Notes: generated from the sequence alone by a model not told the origin. Numbered from the stretch's first letter, positions 20,172 through 57,169 are shown. The stretch is 64,000 nucleotides of DNA from Candidatus Poribacteria bacterium (GCA_022828145.1 JAJEJA010000121.1:1968-65967); one strand, 5' to 3'. Numbers and translations are program-made.

Positions 20172-20951
20172 CTATTCGTATTCCCATTCTTCGCTAGCAT
20201 CTTCATAATCGGGATTTACCGCAATAAGCATGTCAAGCGTATACTCAGGATCAGCATCGTTGCATGCTGTCTCAGGATTTTCCATCTCCGTAGGTTGCTT
20301 CGCATACCATAAAATATCAGCATCGTTGCATGCTGTCTCAGGATTACTATCAGGCAAAGACAATCTATATCCCCATTCTTCGCTAGCATCTTCATAATCG
20401 GGATTTACCGCAATAAGCATATCAAGCGTATACTCGGCTTCGTCACGCGTAAGTTCTTCTTTCATATTAAATTCCTCCCCACATTTCTCAATGAGGTCGC
20501 TAATGAAATCCATCAATGGGGCTAAGAAGTGGTTTTCGTTTTTACCAATAACACCAATTAACTTGTCCAATGATGCAACAAGTCGCTGATGATCATCCGC
20601 TGTCAATGAAGTTAAGAGTTGATCTTCAGTGACACCAGCTAACGAGTCAATGGCTGCTAAAAGCAATTGGGGAAATCCATCCGCTTTGCGAATTGACAAC
20701 ATTGAATTAGGATTATCAAGCTTAGGTGGTGCCTGTTTTCGGGATCTATGCCCTCTGAATCCACTAACACTTTCGCCTACATTTCCAAATTCATAAACGT
20801 TCTCATGTGTCGGTACATGTGGTGTAAGTGGTATCTTGTGCAACAGATCACCTCCAAAAGGCGCTCTGTTTGTCCTCTCAGAGACACTTATAAATTCATT
20901 TGTAGCTGCCATCAGCGAACTATATTTAACGTATTGTCTTTCGTCTAACAT
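20172..20951 (-). CDS. Hypothetical acidic protein containing a very recent internal tandem duplication of about 190 bp
   Basis: DNA 20181-20250 and 20371-20440 are about 97% identical. 20253-20281 and 20316-20344 are also duplicated. The protein repeats EYTLDMLIAVNPDYEDASEEW and PETACNDAD. Confidence 0.5.
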   Translation of the reverse strand: MLDERQYVKYSSLMAATNEFISVSERTNRAPFGGDLLHKIPLTPHVPTHENVYEFGNVGESVSGFRGHRSRKQAPPKLDNPNSMLSIRKADGFPQLLLAAIDSLAGVTEDQLLTSLTADDHQRLVASLDKLIGVIGKNENHFLAPLMDFISDLIEKCGEEFNMKEELTRDEAEYTLDMLIAVNPDYEDASEEWGYRLSLPDSNPETACNDADILWYAKQPTEMENPETACNDADPEYTLDMLIAVNPDYEDASEEWEYE

Positions 20952-21815
20952 AATTTTCTCTTAAATTTCTACATATTTCGCAAAAATATTTTTGAAGTCT
21001 ATAAGTTAAACAGCGTATCATTAACAATTACGATCTACTGTAACGTAAAACTAACGATGAGGATAACAAGTTACTGCATTCGTGCCAAGAAAATCTGTAA
21101 AAACCACAAGTTTACAGTCAATTATTCTATGAAATATAAAATTGTATCAATATTATACCACGTAACAATTCTGTGTGTCAAGAAAAAGCACAAAAACTAG
21201 ATCTATTGTATTAAAGTTGCTCTCCAACTAAGGATATTATACCATGCGAAAATATCAATGTCAAGAAAAAATCATAACCTATTATATCTCCTTGCACTGG
21301 GATGTAAGTTGGATTGTAATGAGTTGCTGCTACCACACTTCATGACCTACTGCTGGTCCGGTGTCTATTTCACCTGAAGCTGCATGCTCAGGTTCCTGTG
21401 CTAACAGGTCCGCGAGTTTCAAACGCGGAAGATCGGCGGGACGACCTATTTTTTTAAGTCGATGCGGTTTGAGAACAGCATCTGCTAAACTCTTGTCTGT
21501 ATCTAAAGTTTCCATTTCTGTTTTTCACGTTAGAGTCCTCCTTAATCATAAACACTAAACATAAGTCTCAGAAAATGTAAACTTATTGGTTCATGTATAA
21601 TTTAAGTGCGAATATTGTTGAGTTGTGTTATTATTTATTGTATGGATTTCCCTATGCTATCTTTATCTTTAATTGAACGATCCCGCGTATAAATATCAAG
21701 TTTGTTAATGTTGAGTTTATATCAAAACTCGTCTATCGCACTTAATCATAACATGAGTCTTTCAAATTTAATATAGATCTTACAACATCATTTGTAAGAA
21801 TTAAAGGAGCAATCA

Positions 21816-22073: not shown

Positions 22074-22214
22074 CGAGGAGACATGAAAGCAGTTGAAAGA
22101 CATTAACATTGAACACATTTCTATAGACAGAATATTACCTAATGTTGAAAATCGCTGAAATCGCTGAATGTGCGGATAAGTGAGTAGTTCTGTGTACAGC
22201 CATCGGAGTCCCGA

Positions 22215-25022
22215 CTATTCTTCCTCAAAACCTTGAGTAGTAAACTTCAAGGTTTTACAATTCTCCGACACAATAACAACTACATTTTCTGGCACACCAT
22301 CCGGCACATTGGCTTGAATATCCATCGTTATTTCAACTTTTGCCCCTGTGAGACTGGTAAGATGCTTCACTACTTCGTCTATAACATTTTGAGCATCTCT
22401 GGCTGCTCGTATCGGATCAAGAGTAACGGATCCGTAAAAACGTTTCGGGGGGACAGTCTGAGTAGGATCGGTTCCAGTTTTATCCTCTGTTTCACCTTTT
22501 GGATCAGTAGAACCTTGATCGCGTTGACCTTTGACAGGGTCTTTTATACCTTGTTCATCTCTTGATTCATCAGTTGCTTGTTCTGTTTCAAGTTGTGCTG
22601 CTGCCACGGCTGGCTTTATCAACACACTTGCTTCATTGATATATATAGAACTACTGACTCTACCGAATTGCAACCCCTTATATTTACCATCGTCGCCAAC
22701 GCTATCTGCGTATCCGAACCATTCCGTTGTTTTGAGTCCCTCTCTGACAGTATTGAGCAGAACACCAGAATCACGTAGACGCGGCATATACAGATACGTC
22801 GCAAGACAATCCCACACGCGCTTGAGACTCACATGAGGTTCGTCTTCTTTCCATAGCCAACGATCCAGTTCCATTTTTAGTAGTGCCGGGGACCATTTGG
22901 TAATTAACTGCTCATCACTTCGGACTTTCTTTACGGCTTTGGTTACCGGATTCTCCTCAGCACCGGAAATGCGGACAATTTCCCATTCTACTGGGTCTGT
23001 GCCTTCTTGTGTTGGCACAAGCAGCCATCTATATGCATCGTTGAGGCGCATACCAACGGTTTCGTTGCACTGATTTTTTCCTTCAGTCGCCTCGCGCCGT
23101 TGATTAGCATCAAGGTTCAGTGCCTCTGAGTCTTGGACAATTGAATCCCACGCGAGGTAGCGACGTGTTTCCTTATCAAGCGATTCCCATTCACCATCAT
23201 CGAGTGCAACGAAGATAAGCATGTTGCTGTAGGTTCTTGGACTATCACCGCGTTTGCTTAAAACCTCTGTTGCAGCTCTGATTGCCTCTGAACTTTGCTG
23301 TCTTGTTTTATGTCCACTTGCAGGTGATAGAATTACCAATCTTGTTTCTGATTCATCTGGCACGTCGGTTGATGTAGGGCAAATGTGGACAGCTTTGAAA
23401 TCGCCTCGGTCTCGGACCTGTCGTAAGCGACGGACAATTTCCGCTTCTACTCTCTCAGGTTCTAATTTTGCAGCGCGATCATCCATTGTTCTGCGCAGGT
23501 TAGGATGTGTGTCATACCAGTATCGTTGGGCACGGGAGTAAAGGTGTGTTAGTCTATTTTCCATGTGTTTTTTGGCATCTATAAACACAGAGACAGACTC
23601 ATCGGGGTGTGCAACGCCGAGGTTTATTCGTATCTCCTCAATACCGCGAACATTCTGATCGCTCCCATGCGGTGCGCTGCCCATGAAGATTGCCCGAGCA
23701 ACGTTTTGTGCTGCAGCGTGTTTGCCAAAACGGGTGTTTCCTGCGTCAATTGCGCGTGTTTCGGAATTTGGTCCATCAACGTCTTTGTCTACAACAGCGT
23801 TCCACCCATCAGCGAGATAACGAAGCAATTCTTCTCGAACATTCCGAGCATTTAATGGAATTGAACCCGGTAAAATCAGCCCTGAACGATCATTGTTCGC
23901 CCATAAGTGATGAATAACTGCTGCCATGAGACGCAAGACACCTCGGGTTTTCTGAAAAGTATCAAGCGGTGACCAGTCGTCATAGAGTCTGTCAAAGAGT
24001 TCCGGGTGTATCGGGTACGCTTGACGGAGTCTATCAAGATAAGTTGTTTCGCTGCATTCAGAGGGAAAATCGGAAGGATTGTCATCGTATAACTTGACAA
24101 ATGCCCGACATACCGCATCGCGTGCGGATGTGTCTTTCACTTGTGAGAAAAGTCGTCGTCTAACAATCTCAAATCCTTCGTTAGCACCAACAGGTCTCCA
24201 TATATTTTCAAGTCTTCCGACAATCGCTTCAATTCGCACTAACGCTGCTTGTCCTGCATCGCCTCCGATTTCAATATCAGACTCCGGTATTGATGCGATG
24301 AGTTGGCTACGATCCGAACGTTTGACAGCTTCCGTTAAGGACTGCACAAAAGTTAAATTAGAGTCAAATGTACCCGCAGGCAGGTCGTTATCAACGTAGA
24401 TGTTGCGCGCATAAGCCACCAACTCATCAATGAGGATGACAGCAGGCCCAAATTGGTTGAGAAGTGTCGTTAAATCGTTAGCACCGGGGGCAACGCTTTT
24501 CTCATCCGCCTCTTTTACAATCGCATAACCCTCTTGTCCACCGAGTTGTGCAGCGATATCACCCCAAAGCGTCCGGACATTAACGCCATTGACATCCCGT
24601 GTCACGGTCGGATTGAGATCTGTTCCGACAATAACAGCAATCCGTGCATCAGGTACTTCACTCACCTGTGCTGCACTGAGGATGTGTTCTACCCCTTCCA
24701 TCTGGTCTGGAGTCACCTTTCCACTGAGAAGGTGATACAACGCCAGCATGCTATGCGTTTTACCTCCACCAAACGCTGTTTTGAGCTGGATGATCGGTTC
24801 TCCGCCGTTGCCTGCTAACCGCTCAACTGCGGAGGTAAGGAGTTGTCCCATGCCATCCGTTAAGTAGGTGCGTTCAAAAAATTCTATCGGGTCTTGATAT
24901 TCCGTGTCAGCTGTCCCGGCGACGACCTCTGCCAAGTTAACAGCAAACTCGGCATTATCGTAACGGTCTTCGGCGACGTCTGGATGTGGGGTAACAACTT
25001 CTCTCCAAGGTTTTAGTGCCAC
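22215..25022 (-). CDS. Large P-loop ATPase of the DUF499-like family (defense-island associated)
   Basis: Walker A FGGGKTHSM near the N-terminus. A 935-aa architecture with no other recognisable catalytic motifs. It is located immediately downstream of a DUF1156 methyltransferase and an SNF2 helicase in the same orientation. Confidence 0.65.
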   Translation of the reverse strand: MALKPWREVVTPHPDVAEDRYDNAEFAVNLAEVVAGTADTEYQDPIEFFERTYLTDGMGQLLTSAVERLAGNGGEPIIQLKTAFGGGKTHSMLALYHLLSGKVTPDQMEGVEHILSAAQVSEVPDARIAVIVGTDLNPTVTRDVNGVNVRTLWGDIAAQLGGQEGYAIVKEADEKSVAPGANDLTTLLNQFGPAVILIDELVAYARNIYVDNDLPAGTFDSNLTFVQSLTEAVKRSDRSQLIASIPESDIEIGGDAGQAALVRIEAIVGRLENIWRPVGANEGFEIVRRRLFSQVKDTSARDAVCRAFVKLYDDNPSDFPSECSETTYLDRLRQAYPIHPELFDRLYDDWSPLDTFQKTRGVLRLMAAVIHHLWANNDRSGLILPGSIPLNARNVREELLRYLADGWNAVVDKDVDGPNSETRAIDAGNTRFGKHAAAQNVARAIFMGSAPHGSDQNVRGIEEIRINLGVAHPDESVSVFIDAKKHMENRLTHLYSRAQRYWYDTHPNLRRTMDDRAAKLEPERVEAEIVRRLRQVRDRGDFKAVHICPTSTDVPDESETRLVILSPASGHKTRQQSSEAIRAATEVLSKRGDSPRTYSNMLIFVALDDGEWESLDKETRRYLAWDSIVQDSEALNLDANQRREATEGKNQCNETVGMRLNDAYRWLLVPTQEGTDPVEWEIVRISGAEENPVTKAVKKVRSDEQLITKWSPALLKMELDRWLWKEDEPHVSLKRVWDCLATYLYMPRLRDSGVLLNTVREGLKTTEWFGYADSVGDDGKYKGLQFGRVSSSIYINEASVLIKPAVAAAQLETEQATDESRDEQGIKDPVKGQRDQGSTDPKGETEDKTGTDPTQTVPPKRFYGSVTLDPIRAARDAQNVIDEVVKHLTSLTGAKVEITMDIQANVPDGVPENVVVIVSENCKTLKFTTQGFEEE

Positions 25023-25067
25023 AGTATACCTCCAATTCCAAGTTCTCTTAAAGTAACTTATTTCATT

Positions 25068-27842
25068 TCAAGATTCCGCAGGTAACAGTTCTTGTTGTTC
25101 AGGCAGCTCAGTTATATCCTTACGTTCCGCCTGAATATTTGCCCATGAGGTGACGAGTGTGTTATAAGGAATCGCCTCTTGTGCCCACCCATTACGGTCA
25201 CAGATGGCGTATAGCCGGTAAGCTAAATCACGTGCATTTTCACTCTGTTCACTCCCCAGTTGAAACACTAACCTTGCCGTTTCGGTTTCACCACCCTGGT
25301 CAAGCGCGCGAATTAGGTATTGTGTGCATTTCCATGTATTGAGATCACTATCCGAAGCTGGAGCCCATTCATCTGGATACTCGTTCCGGTTTAGCAAACG
25401 GACTCTTCCAGCGCGGGCATAGAGAACGCCAGATTCTGATATACCTTCTACGCTCGTGTCCCTGGCACGAGCAAGTACATCAGCTTCACCATAACCCGCT
25501 TCTCCCATACCGTACTGTTCAAACCATGAAACACAGAAACGGGTATCTGCATCAAGATCACCGTCCTGTTCGGTGAAATACGCATCAAGTTCTGTGTTGA
25601 TGATTTGCAGTGCAGTGCGGACTTGCATCGGAGTCCCGCATGCTTCAAGGACACTACTGTAACGTGAGAAGATTGCCATACCGGGACCTATTGATGCCTG
25701 TGTTAGGTCAACAGGAGCAATATTTCCTTGCTGTAAGTGTCGGAGTGCAGTTGGGAGTTTACTCCGAAGCTCGGAAATAAATTCACGGCGGGTTGTCACA
25801 CTTGCATCATCGGGGCGCGGGCGGCATACGAGGACAATTGAAGATGCAAGAGCATTAGTATCCATGGCCACTTGACGAGTTTGTGCTTCTGTCCGGATTG
25901 GTAGCGTCCCCGTAATATGAAAACCGGCTTCAAGCAATCCTTCAAGCATTGTCTCCCATCCTGTTGAAGAAATACCTCCATCTTTATTATCTTTTTCAGA
26001 TTGTTTAAAAGCATAGTAGACAGTCATCGGATACTCAGGATGAGCGTGAGTTCGCATGAGATAAAAGGCTTTACTTAAACCTGTCAAGAAGTGTTCTTCT
26101 GCTTTTGACCTATTTCCACCAAAGCGATGAGGATCGGCGACAAGTTCTTCAGTTTTAGGTACGAGCATTAGGTTAAACAAGTTAGGGTAGATATGTCTTA
26201 AACTTCGGCGTAACCAAATGTAAAAGAAGTCCGATAAGTCTGCGTAGCTAACGTTATTGTAGTAAGGTGGGTCTGTGGAAATGAGAAAATGATTGCTTTC
26301 CACATGTATTGAAGCTGCATCTGATTGATTTGTAAAACCAATCTGACCATTGCCTAAGAATGGTAGAGGATCAATCGCGAGCTCTATAGCTCCGGACAGA
26401 TTCCCCGTTGCAGATCCAAAAACATTAGCATCTGCAAAGTCCCATATCATTGCTAAAGATTGTTTTCCAAAAGCTGGCTGTACTTTTTGACCTTTTGAAT
26501 TCCACCTTGCGAATGTATTACAAGTCATTGCTACTCTGTCAATTGCGAATGCTAGATATGTCAATATGGCACCAGCATAAGTTTCTAATTCTTCACAATT
26601 TGCTTTGCTTGCATCTGCTACGACTTGTACTTTCACTTCGTCCAACAAATCGGTAAAGGTAGACAGAGCAGTCAACTGTCGTTGCGTAAACAGATCTGCC
26701 CAGGTAAAAAAACCATACCCCCGACCACTGACTAAAGTTGTCGTATCACGGTTCATTTCGACTTCCGGTGTCCAAGCAGGCTTGGCAGATTCTGCAATTT
26801 TTACGTGGTCTTCCGAGGGAGAAAGATAAATTCGTCCATTTTCTCCGTCAGCAACAATTGCCATCAGTTGTGCATCTATGTGACCTGCGATACTTTCATT
26901 TTTGACGTGTTCTTCGGGGTTATCTTGATGACACACAAGGCAACGGAAACGAGCACCTCTTCCTATTTTCGTAGGTTCAGGAGGCGCACCTTCCCCCATT
27001 TTTACCTTAAATTGTACTTCCTTACTTGCTTTATTCACCAACGGTTCGATCCATGCTTTTTTTCCTTTTTTCTTTGATAGCCAAAAAGAGGTGACAAGTG
27101 GCATCCTGGCCCCACAAACAGGATTATGACATTTCACCCTCCGTGCCCAAATCCATGCAATGACAGTTGCTTCACCGCCACCCTGTTCCTTCGGAACTTT
27201 CACTTTCGGGTAGAGATGTCCGATCCTCTCTTCTGCTTCGTTCCGCATCCACTCTCCGTAATAACGGATGTCTTCCGCCAAACCTGAGGCACCATTCCAG
27301 GTCTGGTTCTGCAGTGAGTTATTTGGCACTTCAGGATTGACTGGAGGTCGTCCTGCAAATTGCTTAGGAATTTCGATCATTGCTTTGGTGATTAACACAG
27401 CAATAGGATTTAGATCGCTAGCATGTACTTCTAAACCAAGACGTTGTGCTTCCAGTGGAATAGATCCAGCACCACAGAATGGATCTAACACTGGTGGCGG
27501 ATTCCCATTTGTTGACTTGAGAATCTCGTTCCGCGCCTCTGATAGAAGATGTTCATTGTCAGTATTTTCCCACTTAATTATTTGTTCAATAATACGGAAA
27601 AGTCGTTTCCTTTCACGATTCTGTTCTAATTCGGTTGGAAATTTGTCAGGGTGACTTGAAGGGTCATCAACAAGCGAAGCGAATAGTATTGCCCGACATG
27701 CTTTCAATGGTCGCCGTGCCCACCAGAGGTGCAGCGTGGTGGGGTGTCCACGGGCAGGACGACCAGATTTCTCGCGTACTGCTTCGCTGTTGATGTCTTC
27801 TAATGGTAATGCTACTTCAATGAGTTTTTTGTGGTCGGACAT
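25068..27842 (-). CDS. DUF1156-family DNA methyltransferase (N6-adenine / N4-cytosine type, DPPY motif) with Zn-ribbon
   Basis: N-terminal hallmark GHPTTLHLWWARRP. SAM-binding DPFCGAGSIP. Catalytic DPPYYNNVSY. Cys clusters (CHNPVCG...CLVCHQD). Confidence 0.85.
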   Translation of the reverse strand: MSDHKKLIEVALPLEDINSEAVREKSGRPARGHPTTLHLWWARRPLKACRAILFASLVDDPSSHPDKFPTELEQNRERKRLFRIIEQIIKWENTDNEHLLSEARNEILKSTNGNPPPVLDPFCGAGSIPLEAQRLGLEVHASDLNPIAVLITKAMIEIPKQFAGRPPVNPEVPNNSLQNQTWNGASGLAEDIRYYGEWMRNEAEERIGHLYPKVKVPKEQGGGEATVIAWIWARRVKCHNPVCGARMPLVTSFWLSKKKGKKAWIEPLVNKASKEVQFKVKMGEGAPPEPTKIGRGARFRCLVCHQDNPEEHVKNESIAGHIDAQLMAIVADGENGRIYLSPSEDHVKIAESAKPAWTPEVEMNRDTTTLVSGRGYGFFTWADLFTQRQLTALSTFTDLLDEVKVQVVADASKANCEELETYAGAILTYLAFAIDRVAMTCNTFARWNSKGQKVQPAFGKQSLAMIWDFADANVFGSATGNLSGAIELAIDPLPFLGNGQIGFTNQSDAASIHVESNHFLISTDPPYYNNVSYADLSDFFYIWLRRSLRHIYPNLFNLMLVPKTEELVADPHRFGGNRSKAEEHFLTGLSKAFYLMRTHAHPEYPMTVYYAFKQSEKDNKDGGISSTGWETMLEGLLEAGFHITGTLPIRTEAQTRQVAMDTNALASSIVLVCRPRPDDASVTTRREFISELRSKLPTALRHLQQGNIAPVDLTQASIGPGMAIFSRYSSVLEACGTPMQVRTALQIINTELDAYFTEQDGDLDADTRFCVSWFEQYGMGEAGYGEADVLARARDTSVEGISESGVLYARAGRVRLLNRNEYPDEWAPASDSDLNTWKCTQYLIRALDQGGETETARLVFQLGSEQSENARDLAYRLYAICDRNGWAQEAIPYNTLVTSWANIQAERKDITELPEQQELLPAES

Positions 27843-27931
27843 GGTGTTTCCTTTGTTTATTTTGGCATATCATAACATAAAAGCGGGAATTGTGAAAGTA
27901 ACGTTTATTTTTGCAACAAGCAGTATAAAAA

Positions 27932-28699
27932 TTATTTAGATTCAGATGGAAACCTTGAACAGACATTACGGATATAAGTATCATAAAACTCTAAATGTTC
28001 TTTTTTAAAACCTCTGTCGGTAAATTCATAATAAGAGCAGGATACAACATAAAATAAAAATACATTTAAAAGTCCTGCAGCAATTTGCCCACGATACTCA
28101 TCTTTATGCTTGCCATGTTTATCAAAACTCCAATATGAATACATCAGAATATTTCCATGGACATGTTCATTACGATAATTAAACATTCTATTTAATCCAT
28201 CATTGGAAATGTTATTATTTAGTTGCTTGTTTATCCCCTGATCTATCTTTTCCTTTCTTGATTTTCCAGACCAAAAATCTCTACCTGGCTTTCCATATTC
28301 CTTTTTAAAATCCTCTTCCATTTGTTTACGGATTTCTTTTTCACTATTTGCAATATCCAGAAAAGCGGAATATCTGTCTGTTACAGATTCGTTAGACTCA
28401 AGAATATAGAAATAATCTATTGTGCAGTCCCAAAGCAGTCTTGCTGAATATTCTATTGAACGAGAAAAATAATGGCTTTCATCATTAAGCAAGGATTCTG
28501 CTAAAACACATATATCATAAGAAGCCTCCCTGGCATCCATGAATAATTTCCGCAATGCAAGTTGTCTATCGCTAACAGGACCAGAAAGCTTGGTTAATTT
28601 AATAGTTTCATCCACTTTTAGAATTAACTTTTTACTATATTTCAATAATTCTTGCAAATCAGAATCAGATAAATTTTTAGCGACATCCTTTCTATACAT
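27932..28699 (-). CDS. AT-rich (about 30% GC) hypothetical gene inserted between the methyltransferase and the helicase. Unknown function, possibly an accessory defense or abortive-infection component.
   Basis: A 255-aa ORF, K/N/Y-rich, with compositional contrast to its neighbours (about 50% GC). No recognisable motifs. Confidence 0.5.
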   Translation of the reverse strand: MYRKDVAKNLSDSDLQELLKYSKKLILKVDETIKLTKLSGPVSDRQLALRKLFMDAREASYDICVLAESLLNDESHYFSRSIEYSARLLWDCTIDYFYILESNESVTDRYSAFLDIANSEKEIRKQMEEDFKKEYGKPGRDFWSGKSRKEKIDQGINKQLNNNISNDGLNRMFNYRNEHVHGNILMYSYWSFDKHGKHKDEYRGQIAAGLLNVFLFYVVSCSYYEFTDRGFKKEHLEFYDTYIRNVCSRFPSESK

Positions 28700-28779
28700 A
28701 TCTTCTCAATCCTGAGTAAATTGAAACTTTATTCAATATTACATGCCTTTTGTTGTCTAAGTTTAGTATGTTTTAATAC

Positions 28780-31700
28780 CTAACTTGGTGTCTCTGAACG
28801 CGCAAGGAGTTCGTTGATATCGTAATTGACGCTATTTGCGCCGAAGTCCGGTTCTTTTTGAAACGGCTCACGGATATAGCGCGGTTCTTTCGCTGTATCG
28901 CCCTCTACTTCAACGATAGCAAGAATAAAACTCTCCGGTTTGTTGAAAGCAGTGAAAATCTGTGTTTTAGAAACGGTAACGTTTGTCGATCCAGGTGATT
29001 TCCCTTTTACTTCAATGAACAGTAGACTGTTATTATTTGGATCTTTTGACTCAATATCATAGCCTGGGTTATGATGTGGCATCTCTATTGGTCCCCGTCC
29101 AAGTTTCTGTTCCGCTTCCATTACTGCAGCGACTGCAAGTTTATCAATCCTTTCTCGGTCTGCTTGTGCAATCAGAACCGTACTGTCAGTGTTGCTTTCG
29201 GTGGTCTCCAAAAGCGTTTGCGGTACGATGAGTGTGCCCCCAATGACATTTGGTGCCATCGGGGACATATGCTGTTCCTGATCTAATTCTTCCATACGTT
29301 TTCCAAGCCGTTCCTCCAACTCGTTGGCACGCCTTTGTGCTTGGTCTGCGTTGATTTTTGCCATCGGTTTTCCGGCTTCTTCCTGGCGTTTCAAATGGCT
29401 TGCCCGATTATCCCAGTAAATAATTTCCTTCGTGAGTCGTTCATGAACCGCTCGTCTTGTTTTCTCCACCAATTCATCTTTATGCTTCTTTACTTCGTCA
29501 AGGTGTTGTGGAATAAGGTGTTCTGCCGCATAGGCAATAATCCGAGATTCTAATTCCTCACCGTTCTGTAGCCATTCTGCTTCGCGTAATGTAGATACCT
29601 GTGATTGTTCTTCATCAGTGATTGATCGATAATCCAAGTAGGGGGCATATCCGGGTGTTTTTACCGTTCCATCCATATAGATTTCTACGAACTGCATCTG
29701 ACGTGAAACTGTTAGTCTATTTCCATCTTTAAGAGTTCGTCCATCTTGGATTGCATGTTCAAGGTAGAAGAGGACACGAATCTGATCATCAGTTGCATTT
29801 GGATCAACCAAAACCGTTCCCTGTTTAAGCAGTGGACGGTGTTGTTCCAGGACTAAATCAAGTGTTGCATCAAGCAGTGAATGACCGGGACAGACAAATT
29901 CTGCCAAAGGTTTCCCCGGAACAGTAATATGATCTTTTTCAAAGGTAATACGTTCATACTGTTTTAGGACTGGTGTACCGACACCAATTGCAACGTCTCG
30001 TTTACGGATTATCGCGGGAACGTTGCGAATTTGATAACGTTTAGACTCGCGTTCACGCAGTGTTCCACCGAGTTGTGTGAACGCTTCTCGGAAGAACGAA
30101 GCGATAAAGTGTGGTTGCAAACGTTTCGCTTCTGCACGCTCCATATCTTCACGGATATCATTGAGACGGCTGGTATCAATTGTTCCATGAACCAAACTAT
30201 TTTCTCTGATTAAGCCTTGGATATGATCGTGGTCTAATGCCCCGTCAATTACTTCCGTTAATCGTGCTTTAACTTTCGGGTCGTCTCCTTCTCGGATAGC
30301 TCGAATGAGAAGTCTCCTCAGCGGTTCATCGGTAAAACATTTCCCTAACACATCAAAAACAGCACCCCCTAAGGAGCTGCGCTGTTGATTAAGTTTGTGA
30401 AGTAAGGTGTTGAACACTTCTCCCTCTCGCGTTTTTGGTGCAACGAGATTCCAGAGATGACACACCTCAGTCTGCCCGATTCTGTGAATCCTCCCGAACC
30501 TTTGTTCAATGCGGTTTGGGTTCCATGGTAGGTCATAGTTTACCATCAAGTGTGCCCGTTGAAGGTTTATACCCTCGCCAGCAGCATCGGTAGCGATTAG
30601 GATTTGCACATTCGGGTCCTGTGTAAATGCTTCTTGTGCTTCTTGACGTTTTTTCCGTTGCATACTGCCATAAATCGTGACAACGGCTTCGGGACGACCT
30701 ATCAACGTATGAATTTTATCAGTTAGATATTGAAGTGTATCGCGATGTTCAGTGAAGATAATAAGTTTACGACGGTGCCCTTCTGCGTTAAATAATTTGC
30801 CAGATTCAGAGGCATTACCTTCTTTTTGTAAGAGATTAGATAGTTCTTCCCATTTTTTGTCGGTATTACTATTACGGACCTCTTGTGCTAATTTTTCTAA
30901 ACGGGCAAGTGTCTGTATCTCCGCTTCAAGTTCAGAGATTGTTCGGGCAGCTGATGCTTGTGCTATGACTTCTTCCTCTATTGATTCTACTTCTTCAGCA
31001 GTCGCCTCATCATAAAAGTTGTCTACCTCCTCTGAGTCTGTTGGCGCATCACTGTCTATTGGTGTATCTAAGCGGATTGAAGTATCAGATCTGTTATTTT
31101 TTTCTTCCAGTAGTCTATCCTCTAATCGTTCCCTGCGGCGTTGAATAGATCGGTAGATTGCCTCTGGCGATGAAGCTAAGCGTCGTTGTAAGATAGTGAG
31201 AGCAAATCCGACTCGGTTTCCGCGTTGCCCTTCAATATTATCAGCACGGTTCATCTCTTCACGGACATAATTGGTAACCTCTTCATATAGATGTGCTTCT
31301 AATTCAGAGAGCTCGTAGTTGAGAGTTGAGGCGTAACGTTCTGGGAATAAACGCGTTCCATCAAATTTTAGCAGATCCTCTTTAACCATTCGGCGCATCA
31401 GATCGGAGGTGTCCACAGGGTTAACACCCCCTCGAAAACGTCCCTCAAATCGATCAGCATCCAGTAACGCCATGAACAGTTGGAAATCTTCTTCTTTACC
31501 ATTATGGGGTGTGGCAGTTAACAATAAAAAGTGGCGTGTGATTTTCCCGAGCAGTTGTCCGAGTCGGTAACGTTTCGTAGCATGTACGTCCCCTCCAAAA
31601 AAGGAAGCTGACATCTTGTGTGCTTCATCACAAACGATAATGTCCCAATCTGTGTGCTTTAACTTTTCTTGAATATCATCGTTTCGGCTGAGTTGATCAA

Positions 31701-32316
31701 GTCGGCAGATAAATAAGTTATGTTCTTGGAATGGATTTCCTGTACGTGAGCTGTTAATTCTTTCACGGGTAAGGATTTCAAAAGGGAGGTGGAATCGTTG
31801 GTCAAGTTCACTTTGCCATTGCTCCACAAGGCTACCAGGGCATACAATTAGGCAACGTTTTAAATCGCCCCGTACGAGAAGTTCCTTGAGATATAAGCCT
31901 GTCATAATCGTTTTGCCTGCTCCCGGATCATCAGCAAGCAGATAGCGTAAGGGTTGACGCGGTAGCATTTCTTCATAGACTGCGGTAATCTGATGTGGCA
32001 ATGGGTCTACGCTTGACGTATGGACTGCAAGCCGTATATCAAAGAGATGTGCCAATTGGATTCGGTAAGCCTCAGACGCGAGGCGGAACATTTCTCCGTC
32101 TCCATCAAAACTCCACGGAAGTCCGGCAGTAACAATTTCAAGTGAGGATTCGCTGGCTCGGTAAATCAACTCACTGCCAAGCGTGCCATCCGCTTTTTTA
32201 TAGGTAAGTTCTATTCCAATTGTACCTAACCATTTCACTGCAACGACAGTTACCTGTTGGTTAGGTAATATTCCTTTTACGATACAACCTTGTTTAAGTT
32301 CTTCTAAGTGCGCCAA
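28780..32316 (-). CDS. SNF2/DEAD-like superfamily-2 helicase (1178 aa) with an N-terminal extension and a C-terminal DUF3883-like domain
   Basis: Motif I LLADDPGAGKT. Motif II DEAH (IVCDEAHKM). Motifs V/VI ILIATDAAGEGINLQ / NPNRIEQRFGRIHRIGQ. The C-terminal about 120 aa (FIEVKGKS...ILAIVEV) is typical of DUF3883 helicase tails. Confidence 0.85.
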   Translation of the reverse strand: MAHLEELKQGCIVKGILPNQQVTVVAVKWLGTIGIELTYKKADGTLGSELIYRASESSLEIVTAGLPWSFDGDGEMFRLASEAYRIQLAHLFDIRLAVHTSSVDPLPHQITAVYEEMLPRQPLRYLLADDPGAGKTIMTGLYLKELLVRGDLKRCLIVCPGSLVEQWQSELDQRFHLPFEILTRERINSSRTGNPFQEHNLFICRLDQLSRNDDIQEKLKHTDWDIIVCDEAHKMSASFFGGDVHATKRYRLGQLLGKITRHFLLLTATPHNGKEEDFQLFMALLDADRFEGRFRGGVNPVDTSDLMRRMVKEDLLKFDGTRLFPERYASTLNYELSELEAHLYEEVTNYVREEMNRADNIEGQRGNRVGFALTILQRRLASSPEAIYRSIQRRRERLEDRLLEEKNNRSDTSIRLDTPIDSDAPTDSEEVDNFYDEATAEEVESIEEEVIAQASAARTISELEAEIQTLARLEKLAQEVRNSNTDKKWEELSNLLQKEGNASESGKLFNAEGHRRKLIIFTEHRDTLQYLTDKIHTLIGRPEAVVTIYGSMQRKKRQEAQEAFTQDPNVQILIATDAAGEGINLQRAHLMVNYDLPWNPNRIEQRFGRIHRIGQTEVCHLWNLVAPKTREGEVFNTLLHKLNQQRSSLGGAVFDVLGKCFTDEPLRRLLIRAIREGDDPKVKARLTEVIDGALDHDHIQGLIRENSLVHGTIDTSRLNDIREDMERAEAKRLQPHFIASFFREAFTQLGGTLRERESKRYQIRNVPAIIRKRDVAIGVGTPVLKQYERITFEKDHITVPGKPLAEFVCPGHSLLDATLDLVLEQHRPLLKQGTVLVDPNATDDQIRVLFYLEHAIQDGRTLKDGNRLTVSRQMQFVEIYMDGTVKTPGYAPYLDYRSITDEEQSQVSTLREAEWLQNGEELESRIIAYAAEHLIPQHLDEVKKHKDELVEKTRRAVHERLTKEIIYWDNRASHLKRQEEAGKPMAKINADQAQRRANELEERLGKRMEELDQEQHMSPMAPNVIGGTLIVPQTLLETTESNTDSTVLIAQADRERIDKLAVAAVMEAEQKLGRGPIEMPHHNPGYDIESKDPNNNSLLFIEVKGKSPGSTNVTVSKTQIFTAFNKPESFILAIVEVEGDTAKEPRYIREPFQKEPDFGANSVNYDINELLARSETPS

Positions 32317-32722
32317 GTGATTTTCCTTCTATGCTAATTCTTGTATATGTTTAGAGTCTTATGTTGACTATATTACCACATTTTAAAGTGAAAAGTCAAG
32401 TTGAGATGGTCAAAAGCCATAGGCATTCAGTTTTCGGTTTTTGAGCATTTTTGCAGAGGTCTCGCGAGCACGGGGAAATTGAAGAAACACCCAAGCAAAA
32501 CCCTCGTTCCTACAGCGAAGAAACCTAAAGCAGAAAAATGAAAGTATTGGAGAATTGAATTCCCTGCTTGCCTTGGCTTGAGGAGGTCACTGGCAAAATT
32601 GTGGCAAGTCTGTTATTATGTAATCGAGTGTTATATCGAACTTTCAGCAAACTTATCCGCACCGAAAAAATGGGTGTGAAACAGGTTTGAAAAAGAACAC
32701 ATTCTGATGAATCAGCGATATC

Positions 32723-34243
32723 ATGGAGGAACTAACTATGGCTATAGGTATTTTCCTACACTATCCCAATGCCGGTTATCTTGAAGAAGCACGAAACGTT
32801 CTGAATGGACTTAAGTTAGACATTCAGGAAATCAAAGCAGATTATGAAACTGTTTCAAACCTTGTTCCTTACACCTTACAACGTGGTGCTGAGTCTTGGT
32901 TGATACTTTTCGCCCCTGATTACCAACGAGATTTACTGATTTTACCTTTTCCTGATAAATCTTCAGAAGTGCAAGAAGGGTTTCTGGGATCTATTATTGA
33001 GGAACTGCCAAGGGTAATTGACATGTTTTTATCTCGAAACTTTAGATTTTCTTTGGACTGGAATAGACGATTTCAGTACGTTCACATTGATGTCTCCGTT
33101 TATTCCTTGCTAAATTCCAGAAGGGGACAGCAGCAAGATCGGCAGACTCCCCAACAAATCGTTCATTTTTGTCAGGCAACAAGTCAAAACATTCAAACAG
33201 AGCGTAATAAAGCGTGGCGTAGGGCACAAGAGAAAGGAAATCCCATTGTTCTTGATCAATTTGACAAGGTGCTGGAAACAGCAAATCATAAAATCTTCGA
33301 ACGCATAATTGCTCAAGGATCTAAAAAAGTCGTGCCAGAAATCGTTAATATTTTTGAGGATATTATGGATCCTGAAACAAAGCGTTTCTTAATCACAACT
33401 GAAACAGTAAGTGCCTTTGTAGATAAACACCTACCTCCTAATTTTGACTATTCTGCGCCGGGATGTGGTCTTTGGAAAGCTGTAGAACGCGAACTGAATC
33501 TTTCACTCGTGTTGCATTTGCGTAGGGAGGCTGGGGTAGTGAAGAATGTTTATTACCCGTGGAAGGGAAGTAAACAAGGAAAAATTCCAATTTTAACAGG
33601 GGAAAACCGCAGCGTAGATCTCAATAAAGATTCAAAAAATCCCGATAGTATTATGCTTGGTCCTATGACAAGTTTGCTTGAATGGGGACATTGTAATACC
33701 GTCAGAGAGAAATTGGAAAATCTTTTTTTCGCTTTCGACTTCGACTTTGACTTTCTACTACAGTATCTTCTTGGTCAACACGCTGGTGCAGGTGGGAGTG
33801 CGAAAAAAGATACCCTCCCTGAGTTTTTGGATAAAATAAGAAAATTAAGAAACGGTCATGCCCACATATCAGCTATGTCCCGGCAAGAATTTGGGACACT
33901 TCGTAATCTTGTTCTTGCTTCAAAGCACGGGGCAACAAGTTCATGCTTGCATGGAATTCTCCTGTTGAAAGCACTTGTGCTTTTATATTGGGGACAATCT
34001 GATTTTCCTACTAAGATAACAACTGAAGATAAACAAGTCGTAGAGTTTAAGAACTACAATAATACGTTTACCCGCGGCGATGGATCAAACTGGAAACTTG
34101 TCGCGATACATGGAGATGGTTCTGAGCTCTGCATCGCTACATTTGACACAAAAGACGATGCAGAAGCCGTCCGTAAAGAACTTGATAAAGCCGCTGGTAC
34201 TGAAAAAGAATGGGATGTCAATAGGTTCAAAGAGAAAATGTAA
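32723..34243 (+). CDS. Hypothetical 506-aa protein, divergent from the helicase operon. The C-terminal region has a possible HEPN-like Rx5H motif (RKLRNGHAH).
   Basis: ORF with a FDFDFDF segment and RKLRNGHAHIS. The HEPN assignment is speculative and rests on motif spacing only. Confidence 0.5.
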   Translation: MEELTMAIGIFLHYPNAGYLEEARNVLNGLKLDIQEIKADYETVSNLVPYTLQRGAESWLILFAPDYQRDLLILPFPDKSSEVQEGFLGSIIEELPRVIDMFLSRNFRFSLDWNRRFQYVHIDVSVYSLLNSRRGQQQDRQTPQQIVHFCQATSQNIQTERNKAWRRAQEKGNPIVLDQFDKVLETANHKIFERIIAQGSKKVVPEIVNIFEDIMDPETKRFLITTETVSAFVDKHLPPNFDYSAPGCGLWKAVERELNLSLVLHLRREAGVVKNVYYPWKGSKQGKIPILTGENRSVDLNKDSKNPDSIMLGPMTSLLEWGHCNTVREKLENLFFAFDFDFDFLLQYLLGQHAGAGGSAKKDTLPEFLDKIRKLRNGHAHISAMSRQEFGTLRNLVLASKHGATSSCLHGILLLKALVLLYWGQSDFPTKITTEDKQVVEFKNYNNTFTRGDGSNWKLVAIHGDGSELCIATFDTKDDAEAVRKELDKAAGTEKEWDVNRFKEKM

Positions 34244-34418: not shown

Positions 34419-34796
34419 TTAATTGCGATAGGTTTGGATGCGCGGTTTTGGAGTGCCAACCATAGGTGGCAAATTCCATGTTGTTTGCATAGAGTATTTT
34501 CCTTCTTGTTGGGCATAGCGCAACACCGAGCCGATCCGTGTGCGGTGGTGTTCCAGTTCTTCCGGTGTTGTGACAACGATGTCCTTCGCTACAGGTAAAT
34601 CAGCCAAGGCTACGCGGATGTCAACAGCCGTATTCCGCTTATCCTTATCTGTGAGCTCCTCAAAAACGATAAGCAAATCTATGGCACTATGCCGATCAGC
34701 ATCCCCTCGTGCTTGTGAACCGAAGAGAATAATCTGAAGCGGGTCAAATTCACGGACTATACGCTCTGTCATGATTGAGATAAAATTGTTATTCAT
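34419..34796 (-). CDS. Minimal nucleotidyltransferase (MNT, Pol-beta superfamily; MntA/AbiEi-like antitoxin-type). The longest ORF extends to 34895, but the likely start is M at 34796 or 34772.
   Basis: GS-x9-D-x-D signature: ILFGSQARGDADRHSAIDLLIVF. No HEPN partner ORF is found downstream on the same strand. Confidence 0.7.
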   Translation of the reverse strand: MNNNFISIMTERIVREFDPLQIILFGSQARGDADRHSAIDLLIVFEELTDKDKRNTAVDIRVALADLPVAKDIVVTTPEELEHHRTRIGSVLRYAQQEGKYSMQTTWNLPPMVGTPKPRIQTYRN

Positions 34797-34856: not shown

Positions 34857-34891
34857 TATCAAAATCATGACGAATACGCGTTTGGTATTCG
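34857..34891. promoter_or_regulatory. Perfect 13-bp inverted repeat (tcatgacgaatac-N7-gtattcgtcatga) upstream of the MNT gene. Candidate autoregulatory operator.
   Basis: Palindrome read directly. The position is 5' of the MNT start on the minus strand. Confidence 0.4.
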
Positions 34892-34974
34892 TCATGATTT
34901 TGCGGGTGTTACTTCAATCTACCCGACCTATAAGGTAAGAGTAGACTATCTATGAATGTGATCAACAGATTCAA

Positions 34975-56851: not shown

Positions 56852-56934
56852 CTCTTTAGTCCCGTAGGGACGATATGTTTATAGATCGCGTATATCCACG
56901 GCCTCTTTAGTCCCGTAGGGACGATATGTTTATA
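56852..56934. repeat. Two 32-bp direct repeats (ctctttagtcccgtagggacgatatgtttata) with a 51-bp period, followed by a partial inverted copy (aacatatcgtc) at about 56950-56960
   Basis: Exact repeat read in the sequence. Intergenic position between divergent genes. Confidence 0.5.
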
Positions 56935-57102
56935 AATACCGTCGCATAACATATCGTCACTGATGAAGTTAAAGAAGATATTTGGGTAATTTGGCGAGGT
57001 TAGGAAACCTCGCCAGCAGAGTGTTGTACCTTCATTATGCAAACAAGAAATTACCCGTTTAATTATTTAAACTTCATAAGGCATTCATAACGTTGATTTA
57101 TA

Positions 57103-57169
57103 GGTAGAGCGAAGCGAAACCCGACAGGATAGACATATCAATACGTGTCGGGTTTCGCTTCGCTCTACC
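57103..57169. repeat. Perfect 24-bp inverted repeat (ggtagagcgaagcgaaacccgaca ... tgtcgggtttcgcttcgctctacc) with a 19-nt loop. A very stable hairpin or protein-binding palindrome.
   Basis: Read directly. It lies in the divergent promoter region between the SBP gene and the MBL-fold gene. There is no adjacent U-tract in a position to make it a terminator for either flanking gene. Confidence 0.6.

Follow-up and report, generated by a model that had tools for sequence, protein, structure and literature searches.

Four co-directional open reading frames (ORFs) on the minus strand of a 64,000-nucleotide stretch of DNA from Candidatus Poribacteria (GCA_022828145.1 JAJEJA010000121.1:1968-65967; hereafter the window) raise two questions: to which described defence system does this operon belong, and what is the small AT-rich gene that lies within it? 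The operon occupies positions 22215-32316 and, according to the ORF map, is transcribed from 32316 towards 22215. We conclude with high confidence that it is a complete Hma system carrying one embedded cargo gene, in a probable Candidatus Poribacteria genome. As for the embedded gene, which encodes a 255-aa protein, we tentatively propose that it belongs to an undescribed family of defence or defence-accessory genes that rides with methylation-based systems (Hma, Type I, Type ISP, Type III and methyltransferase-HNH).

In order of transcription, the operon consists of hmaA (28780..32316; 1178 aa, TTG start), which encodes a Swi2/Snf2 helicase, the embedded ORF (27932..28699; 255 aa, 31.5% GC), hmaB (25068..27842; 924 aa), which encodes a DUF1156 N6-adenine DNA methyltransferase, and hmaC (22215..25022; 935 aa, GTG start), which encodes a DUF499 AAA+/STAND-like ATPase. 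All four lie on the minus strand, separated by tight gaps of 80, 89 and 45 bp, and an independent gene call (ENA KELL22-1 scaffold_495, locus L001) gives the identical four products. The PADLOC models for HmaA, HmaB and HmaC match over their full length at E=0, with 1668.6, 1133 and 1167.9 bits, respectively. Curation of Hma follows the rule that the three genes are co-stranded, that each occurs once and that at most three embedded genes lie between neighbours (Payne et al. 2024); here hmaA, hmaB and hmaC are each single-copy and on one strand, with one embedded gene at the hmaA-hmaB junction. Pfam searches of the four operon proteins and ten flanking ORFs revealed neither markers of Type-2 systems (a DUF3780 gene, an N-terminal HKD) nor markers of Type-3 systems (PglZ, iSTAND) as defined for the BREX-related (BR) group. 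In its helicase, NOV_C nuclease, DUF1156 and DUF499 domains and in its gene arrangement the locus is, at the level of sequence, Hma; Type-2 and Type-3 BR systems are excluded for the operon, and its newer name would be a Type-1 DUF499-centred BR system. The initial annotation of this DNA had described much of this correctly. Its ORF coordinates and sizes, shared direction and tight spacing agree with the ORF map, the three domains that it had proposed to check by profile search (DUF1156, DUF499 and DUF3883) were all assigned with Pfam, and the PADLOC scan that it suggested gave the full-length matches reported above. The individual motifs on which it had relied are likewise present, namely the DEAH box and DUF3883-type C-terminus of the helicase, the Zn-ribbon, GHPTTLHLWWARRP and DPPY motifs of the methyltransferase, and GGGKTHS in a 935-aa, DUF499-like ATPase.

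Could the operon instead be a degenerate or variant DISARM or Type-3 BREX system? The helicase also matches the PADLOC models for DrmD (8.1e-122) and BrxHI/BrxHII (4.2e-98), and an analysis published in 2026 argues for a common origin of the trio and Type-3 BREX (PMC12839542). We consider this reading very improbable. In PADLOC, HmaA outscores DrmD by 1669 to 406 bits, the NCBIfam DrmD model reaches 375 bits, under its cut-off of 610, and matches to DrmD, BrxH and DpdE are restricted to the helicase core of HmaA, with scores far lower than that of the HmaA model. Neither the operon nor any of the ten flanking ORFs encodes DrmA, DrmB, DrmC, PglZ, BrxA, BrxB or BrxL. DISARM as such was rejected, as the DrmD-like helicase core is its only part present and neither DUF1998 nor PLD genes were found at the locus. 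We therefore assign the operon to Hma, or Type-1 BR, because the Hma models match full-length, the competing models match more weakly and markers of the other systems were not found.

The name Hma dates from 2021 and was based on 1,638 three-gene operons distributed over 26 phyla (PMC8565338); a 2026 study followed the trio back to observations made in 2013 and 2020 and recast it as Type-1 DUF499-centred BR (PMC12839542). The operon described here shares with Hma (PADLOC; Payne et al. 2021) and Type-1 BR (Rakesh & Krishnan 2026) the three proteins, their order and their orientation, together with the combination of Snf2 and a C-terminal NOV_C domain, a DUF1156 methyltransferase with a Zn-finger recognition insert and a DUF499 ATPase. 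An embedded gene at the hmaA-hmaB junction is also a feature of most Hma loci. In a survey of 1,485 Hma systems, 62.7% contained embedded genes, 96.7% of which were co-oriented with the host system, and several Hma-embedded candidates were validated as defences (bioRxiv 10.1101/2024.01.29.577857). The differences lie in the host lineage, which is Poribacteria and metagenome-only, in an HmaC without the N-terminal HEPN carried by ~56% of Type-1 BR taxa, and in an embedded gene that falls outside the published HEC or PDC cassettes. In Halomonas meridiana Hm43005, for instance, Septu is embedded at the hmaA-hmaB junction and a pair of AAA_21 genes at the hmaB-hmaC junction; the operon in the window has a single embedded gene, of 255 aa and of an unrelated family.

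How well are the three core proteins preserved? HmaA matches the Pfam families SNF2-rel_dom (1.6e-16), Helicase_C (1.6e-23) and NOV_C (equivalent to DUF3883; 1.5e-15), as well as ResIII, and its PADLOC match spans residues 1-1177 of 1178. Its translation contains motif I (GAGKT, 132-136), the DEAH box (230-233) and motif VI (QRFGRIHR, 605-612). At the C-terminus, the NOV_C/DUF3883 PD-(D/E)XK nuclease domain (aa 1058-1147; 28876..29145, minus strand) retains an intact signature, D1087 ... E1102-V-K1104, in GYDIES and IEVKGK motifs, and is predicted to be the primary effector of the system. An active C-terminal PD-(D/E)XK domain (NOV_C) on the helicase is a Type-1 hallmark, seen in 79% of taxa, and the Type-1 helicase architecture also includes an N-terminal TUDOR domain and an inactive restriction endonuclease (PMC12839542); residues 1-95 of HmaA gave no Pfam match. 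The HmaA of H. meridiana, expressed alone, lowers T4 propagation ~100-fold, and its NOV_C domain nicks supercoiled DNA with Mn2+; defence is lost in the D1084A/E1104A/K1106A/E1121A mutant, and mutation of D1084/E1104/K1106 also abolishes the nickase activity (PMC11232893). The window protein shares the architecture of H. meridiana Hm43005 HmaA and retains the motif I threonine (T136), the motif VI arginines and the D...ExK residues, with D1087, E1102 and K1104 equivalent to D1084, E1104 and K1106. In contrast, E1121 of the Halomonas protein appears to correspond to Gln (Q1119) in the window protein, going by its position and not by an alignment. The initial annotation had stated that the mechanism of the trio was not worked out, the effector nuclease included. 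The HmaA NOV_C nickase largely answers the question of the nuclease (PMC11232893), and the statement on the mechanism is true only in part: the system was named in 2021 and has been surveyed, and the nickase was shown in 2024.

HmaB, which matches DUF1156 in Pfam at 2.5e-26, contains GHPTTLHLWWARRP at residues 32-45, motif I (DPFCGAGS) at 120 and motif IV (DPPY) at 524, with Zn-ribbon cysteines in CHNPVC at 238 (238-243) and CLVCH at 301 (cysteines 301-304). Between motif I and DPPY lies a hypervariable segment (aa ~299-545; 26208..26948, minus strand) that is only 28-54% identical to the alleles in two sister operons (L015 and L016), compared to 60-96% for most other portions of the gene. The L016 operon illustrates the contrast, since its HmaC and small protein are 93% and 81% identical to those of the window despite the divergent HmaB insert. 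The recognition insert of this methyltransferase class has been placed between motif I and DPPY (PMC12839542), and we infer that the hypervariable segment is the target-recognition insert. The mosaic pattern suggests recombinational swapping of a target-recognition module. Such swapping of specificity modules would be expected of a methylase that reads a motif in the manner of restriction-modification (R-M) systems, and is the best support within the sequence for an R-M-like model. HmaC matches DUF499 in Pfam (7.9e-34), with Walker A (GGGKTHS) at 85-91 and Walker B (LIDE) at 197-200. An R-x4-H pattern is absent throughout HmaC and Walker A occurs as early as residue 85; as judged from these features, the protein is without an N-terminal HEPN fusion. 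No solved structure was found by sequence for relatives of HmaB or of HmaC. In one sister operon (L011, 13680-16488) a frameshift near residue 495 divides hmaC into ORFs of 503 and 423 aa, which may reflect either a pseudogene or a long-read indel error.

The nearest relatives of the operon are found in Candidatus Poribacteria metagenome-assembled genomes (MAGs). In L011 (CBDHDL010000021.1), HmaA is 95%, HmaB 92%, HmaC 91-97% and the small protein 82% identical to the window proteins, and blastn of the window against this locus gives 91-94% DNA identity across the operon except for one insert. The homology ends ~13 bp or less beyond both ends of the operon (window positions 22202 and 32330) and reappears only 2 kb upstream, over a nucleotidyltransferase gene, the remaining flanking genes being different. 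These boundaries, taken from comparison of the two sequences, would fit a transferable block. The insert itself is a 2.2-kb cassette at the hmaA-to-embedded-gene junction, present in L011 (7803-9952) and L015 (3899-6053), where it extends from the stop codon of hmaA to ~22 bp before the small gene. One of its two genes codes for a CD-NTase (matched by PADLOC Cyclase at 4.1e-110), the other for an endonuclease of the HNH-SAVED type (matched by PADLOC Effector at 4.2e-116 and by Pfam SAVED at 7.8e-39), and the cassette is, by these matches, a CBASS. In the window the junction (28700..28779, minus strand), where blastn to L011 breaks at 28779/28721, holds instead 57 bp of unrelated sequence (28722-28778), and no direct repeats flank the CBASS insertion. 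This junction is thus an insertion hotspot.

What, then, is the gene that borders this hotspot? The initial annotation had pointed to an extra inserted gene of low GC, and this is real. Among the four operons that contain it (those of the window, L011, L015 and L016) its GC is 31.6-33.1%, while that of their hma genes is 45-50%; that the low GC is kept in all four indicates that it is a stable property of the gene and that the gene is not a very recent arrival. The four Hma-embedded copies evolve under purifying selection, with a ratio of nonsynonymous to synonymous substitution rates (dN/dS) of 0.17-0.21 at dS 0.46-0.90. Across 42 homologues, 13 polar residues are invariant (R57, D62, H76, S79, R87, D95, D141, R148, K151, N177, E178, H181 and N183), the last four of which form the motif N177-E178-x-x-H181-x-N183. 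An AlphaFold2 (AF2) model built from the family alignment is all-helical with a pLDDT of 85.8 and a pTM of 0.86, and the protein is predicted to be all-helical and soluble.

The family is small. It comprises ~75-80 clusters at 90% identity among 5.8 billion proteins, and four matches, all in Poribacteria MAGs, were obtained in species-representative genomes. Exhaustive phmmer of 1.84 billion 50%-identity representatives produced 12 matches and no bridge to a characterised family, and two profile searches, the second of which included the 30%-identity members, did not extend it. The window protein has no match in PADLOC-DB v2.0.0 even at E<=10, with none or noise only for four relatives; this database includes the PDC candidates, one of which, PDC-S09, is matched by a neighbouring nucleotidyltransferase. 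There was no NCBIfam match for the protein and nothing usable in PHROGs, no match in a profile search of PDB sequences and none by tblastn in plasmid and phage collections, and a pattern scan of metagenome contigs gave 364 pattern matches, 0 of them confirmed. Weak matches to Pfam DUF5677 (PF18928) occur in 33 of the 42 relatives at E<=1 (best 7.2e-06), a likeness to that family from which the window protein, having no match, departs. DUF3780, the Type-2 BR marker, was considered for the embedded protein and rejected, there being no Pfam match and the all-alpha model differing from an alpha+beta fold. One family copy, beside a Type III R-M system (L013, 10001-10750), has an in-frame stop after residue ~155 (…EQGI*KYPP…) and may be a decaying copy or a sequencing error.

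The company that the family keeps is informative. The close clade, at 71-82% identity (window, L011, L015 and L016), always lies between hmaA, with or without CBASS, and hmaB. Members at 45-55% identity are found directly upstream (L004) or directly downstream (L005 and L007) of Type ISP restriction enzymes, convergent with a methyltransferase-HNH fusion (L003) or 2 kb from one (L012), and divergent from a Type III mod/res pair (L013). Two further members (49-55% identity) are encoded on circular-looking contigs of 134 and 216 kb with integrases and orphan methyltransferases. These contigs (L018, ctg831374_49x_c, 134.2 kb; L009, ctg243634_50x_c, 216.5 kb) both encode giant ~3,160-aa proteins, with UvrD-helicase domains in the L018 copy only, and may be large plasmids of the same lineage. 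At 30-32% identity, one member (L022) sits within a Type I locus in the order hsdM-hsdS-X-AAA_15/AAA_21 ATPase, and two others (L019 and L020) belong to an hsdM/hsdS cluster that also holds DUF1828 and Fic-like genes. Among the canonical subunits of Hma the embedded gene has no place. Because the hmaA-hmaB junction is a known insertion hotspot and relatives sit in or near R-M systems, it is, by analogy, most likely a second-layer effector or guard linked to R-M and other methylation-based systems. A precedent for such an arrangement is the PrrC anticodon nuclease, which is embedded in the EcoprrI Type I R-M locus. Distant relatives of the 255-aa protein resemble PrrC/RloC in lying between hsdS and downstream genes of Type I loci (L022 and L019), a placement that suggests, again by analogy, a latent effector guarded by the R-M complex; they differ in having no ABC-ATPase domain and no sequence similarity, and the functional analogy is by inference only. 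Likewise, HEC-01 to HEC-09, and BrxU/GmrSD in BREX, are co-oriented, tightly spaced cargo nested in a methylation-based system, although the embedded protein has no sequence match to HEC/PDC models. HEC-08 is a single-gene HEPN (DUF3644) with Zn fingers and a functional Rx4-6H, whereas the embedded family has neither Zn fingers nor the conserved Arg. That the protein may act as a nuclease without need of a metal, through its invariant N-E-x-x-H and Arg residues, is speculative.

Several observations weigh against the picture of a methylation-based Hma system with a defence gene nested in it. Foldseek comparison of the embedded-protein model with PDB and BFVD returned nothing at E<=0.001, and hence no significant fold or family, and a single DUF5677 ORF assayed in Enterococcus gave no defence. 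An R-M-type methyltransferase gene lies within ~2.5 kb of the family member in roughly 11 of 13 distinct contexts, but this is a pattern rather than a statistic. Regarding the host system, overexpression of HmaB did not protect T4 in a test of methylation protection, though T4 DNA is itself hypermodified, and 15-20% of hmaA homologues are without hmaB or hmaC (PMC11232893). Finally, the Arg column that defines HEPN RNases is Leu in 38 of the 42 family members and Arg in one, the window copy only, and so the Rx4-6H motif is not a family trait.

This last point bears directly on a doubtful yet serious alternative, in which the 255-aa protein is a HEPN-superfamily RNase toxin that replaces, in trans, the suicide RNase fused elsewhere to the N-terminus of DUF499 proteins. 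HmaC here has no N-terminal HEPN, the window protein contains RNEHVH at 176-181 and has a weak match to HEPN_RiboL-PSP (E=0.0068), N177 and H181 are invariant, and stand-alone HEPN genes are known in BR loci (PMC12839542). Against these stand, in addition to the unconserved arginine, a HEPN Pfam match confined to one of the 42 members, below the gathering score, and the failure of Foldseek to return a significant match. The main rival to our reading, which we regard as unlikely, is that the protein belongs to the core of this Hma lineage as a fourth subunit, such as a regulator of the methyltransferase or a specificity or reader partner, by analogy with the stand-alone DUF3780 gene found in Type-2 BR systems. 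That the gene is immediately upstream of hmaB in all four related operons, and has kept this position over a divergence of dS 0.46-0.90, with the CBASS cassette present in some operons and not in others, would fit such a role, as would the fact that family members elsewhere adjoin or lie near DNA methyltransferase-containing genes. Yet the PADLOC definition of Hma and most surveyed Hma systems do without a 255-aa gene, the protein is not DUF3780 on the grounds given above, and no helix-turn-helix or other DNA-binding domain was detected in it. Moreover, the systems with which the family is partnered (Type I, ISP, III and methyltransferase-HNH) are mechanistically unrelated, and the L006 and L009 copies are on plasmid-like or circular contigs with no adjacent R-M gene. 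It could also be argued that the AT-rich ORF of 255 codons arose by chance, or is a decaying remnant in an intergenic spacer, given its very low GC (31.5%), the lack of a family annotation and the in-frame stop in the L013 relative; the ~80 full-length protein clusters with their 13 invariant polar residues, the low dN/dS and the confident AF2 model make this extremely improbable. Our tentative reading remains that of an undescribed defence or defence-accessory family.

How might these parts work together? In the published model of Type-1 BR systems, the methyltransferase marks self, the DUF499 ATPase both senses and scaffolds, and the helicase-restriction endonuclease restricts, with HEPN, OLD-TOPRIM, HNH and Schlafen modules as optional backup effectors (PMC12839542). 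From what is known of the family, HmaB, with its Zn-ribbon-bearing hypervariable insert, would probably mark a short motif in host DNA as self, HmaC, as a STAND/ORC-like AAA+ ATPase, would probably scan DNA or assemble the complex, and HmaA, which combines an Snf2 translocase with a PD-(D/E)XK nuclease, would probably move along unmarked invader DNA and nick or cut it. Nuclease-dependent defence is known for the Halomonas HmaA homologue and would extend to the HmaA described here by homology. The embedded gene would probably add a second layer, as an R-M-linked effector or guard that follows the logic of PrrC in EcoprrI or of the Hma-embedded candidates.

The surroundings of the operon are for the most part ordinary, with genes for an aminotransferase, TPR proteins, a beta-propeller/Ig protein and an S55-like peptidase. 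The GC content of the operon had been said to differ from that of the flanks; it does so only modestly (44.2% versus ~41.8%), and the strong contrast is inside the operon, between the embedded ORF (31.5%) and the hma genes (44.5-47.4%). The notion of an immunity island is only partly apt. The Hma block is self-contained and carries nested cargo, as is usual for Hma, and among the ten flanking ORFs PADLOC detected no further defence system, only a PDC-S09-like nucleotidyltransferase. Hma usually lies outside defence islands, according to the survey (bioRxiv 10.1101/2024.01.29.577857). No tRNA genes and no notable direct or inverted flanking repeats mark the borders, no integrase or transposase was found in the flanks, and Rfam gave no match in 19-36 kb. 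Toxin-antitoxin-like neighbours, which had also been proposed, come down to one solitary MNT-type nucleotidyltransferase (34419..34772, minus strand; 117-aa gene call; Pfam NTP_transf_2, 6.5e-10), with a PADLOC match to PDC-S09 at 9.9e-11 and an NCBIfam match to MntA at 6e-07, below cut-off. There is no adjacent HEPN partner ORF, and the small ORFs at 21.3-22.1 kb gave no matches, so that the proposal is weak overall. This nucleotidyltransferase gene is the only flanking gene common to the window and L011 (91% DNA identity); some 90 bp upstream of the gene call, 18 nt are perfectly repeated in inverted orientation (34860-34877 / 34885-34902).

Further features were noted in and around the operon. 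A candidate sigma-70-like promoter upstream of hmaA (32370..32399, minus strand) is a weak consensus match, at 9/12 positions with TG, and a second candidate, internal to the operon just upstream of hmaB in its gap from the embedded gene (27869..27896, minus strand; TTCACA-16-TATGAT, 10/12 with TG), is also no more than a match to the consensus. At 21121-21308 on the minus strand, two promoters that agree perfectly with the sigma-70 consensus (TTGACA-17/18-TATAAT with TG, 12/12) lie 83 bp apart in a duplicated part of a region of 35% GC and point towards an unannotated 259-aa ORF (20951..20172). Divergent from hmaA is a 506-aa ORF (32723-34243, plus strand; 501 aa in the ENA gene call) that is not in L011 and contains a classical HEPN-type RNGHAH motif at residues 376-381; it gave no Pfam, PADLOC, NCBIfam or PDB match, and its single-sequence AF2 model (pLDDT 40.7) was unusable. 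Short palindromic intergenic repeats at 56852-57169, which comprise two copies of a 40-nt direct repeat and an inverted repeat of 24 nt without mismatch (57103-57126 / 57146-57169), are common to the Poribacteria MAG locus L011 (18861-19266); they look like lineage-specific REP-like elements and speak for an origin of the window in Poribacteria.

Altogether, the trio itself is one more instance of Hma, or Type-1 BR, in an uncultured phylum, and does not by itself open up the mechanism of the system. What is new, and modestly interesting as a set of leads, is the embedded gene family, the presence/absence polymorphism of CBASS and the swapped recognition insert of HmaB. The sister operons form a natural allelic series, in which the HmaB insert is swapped while HmaC remains 93% identical, and could serve to link the insert to a methylation motif. 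The CBASS polymorphism, with its junction mapped to within ~60 bp, presents an embedding hotspot at sequence resolution. The embedded family lives in metagenome-only lineages and was for this reason missed by RefSeq-based 'guilt-by-embedding' screens, making it a candidate for those who work on Hma and BREX-like systems. If our reading of the family is true, its centre of N-E-x-x-H plus invariant Arg, Asp and His would lie outside the canonical HEPN definition, and the family could be a latent effector that fires once its partner R-M machinery is inhibited.

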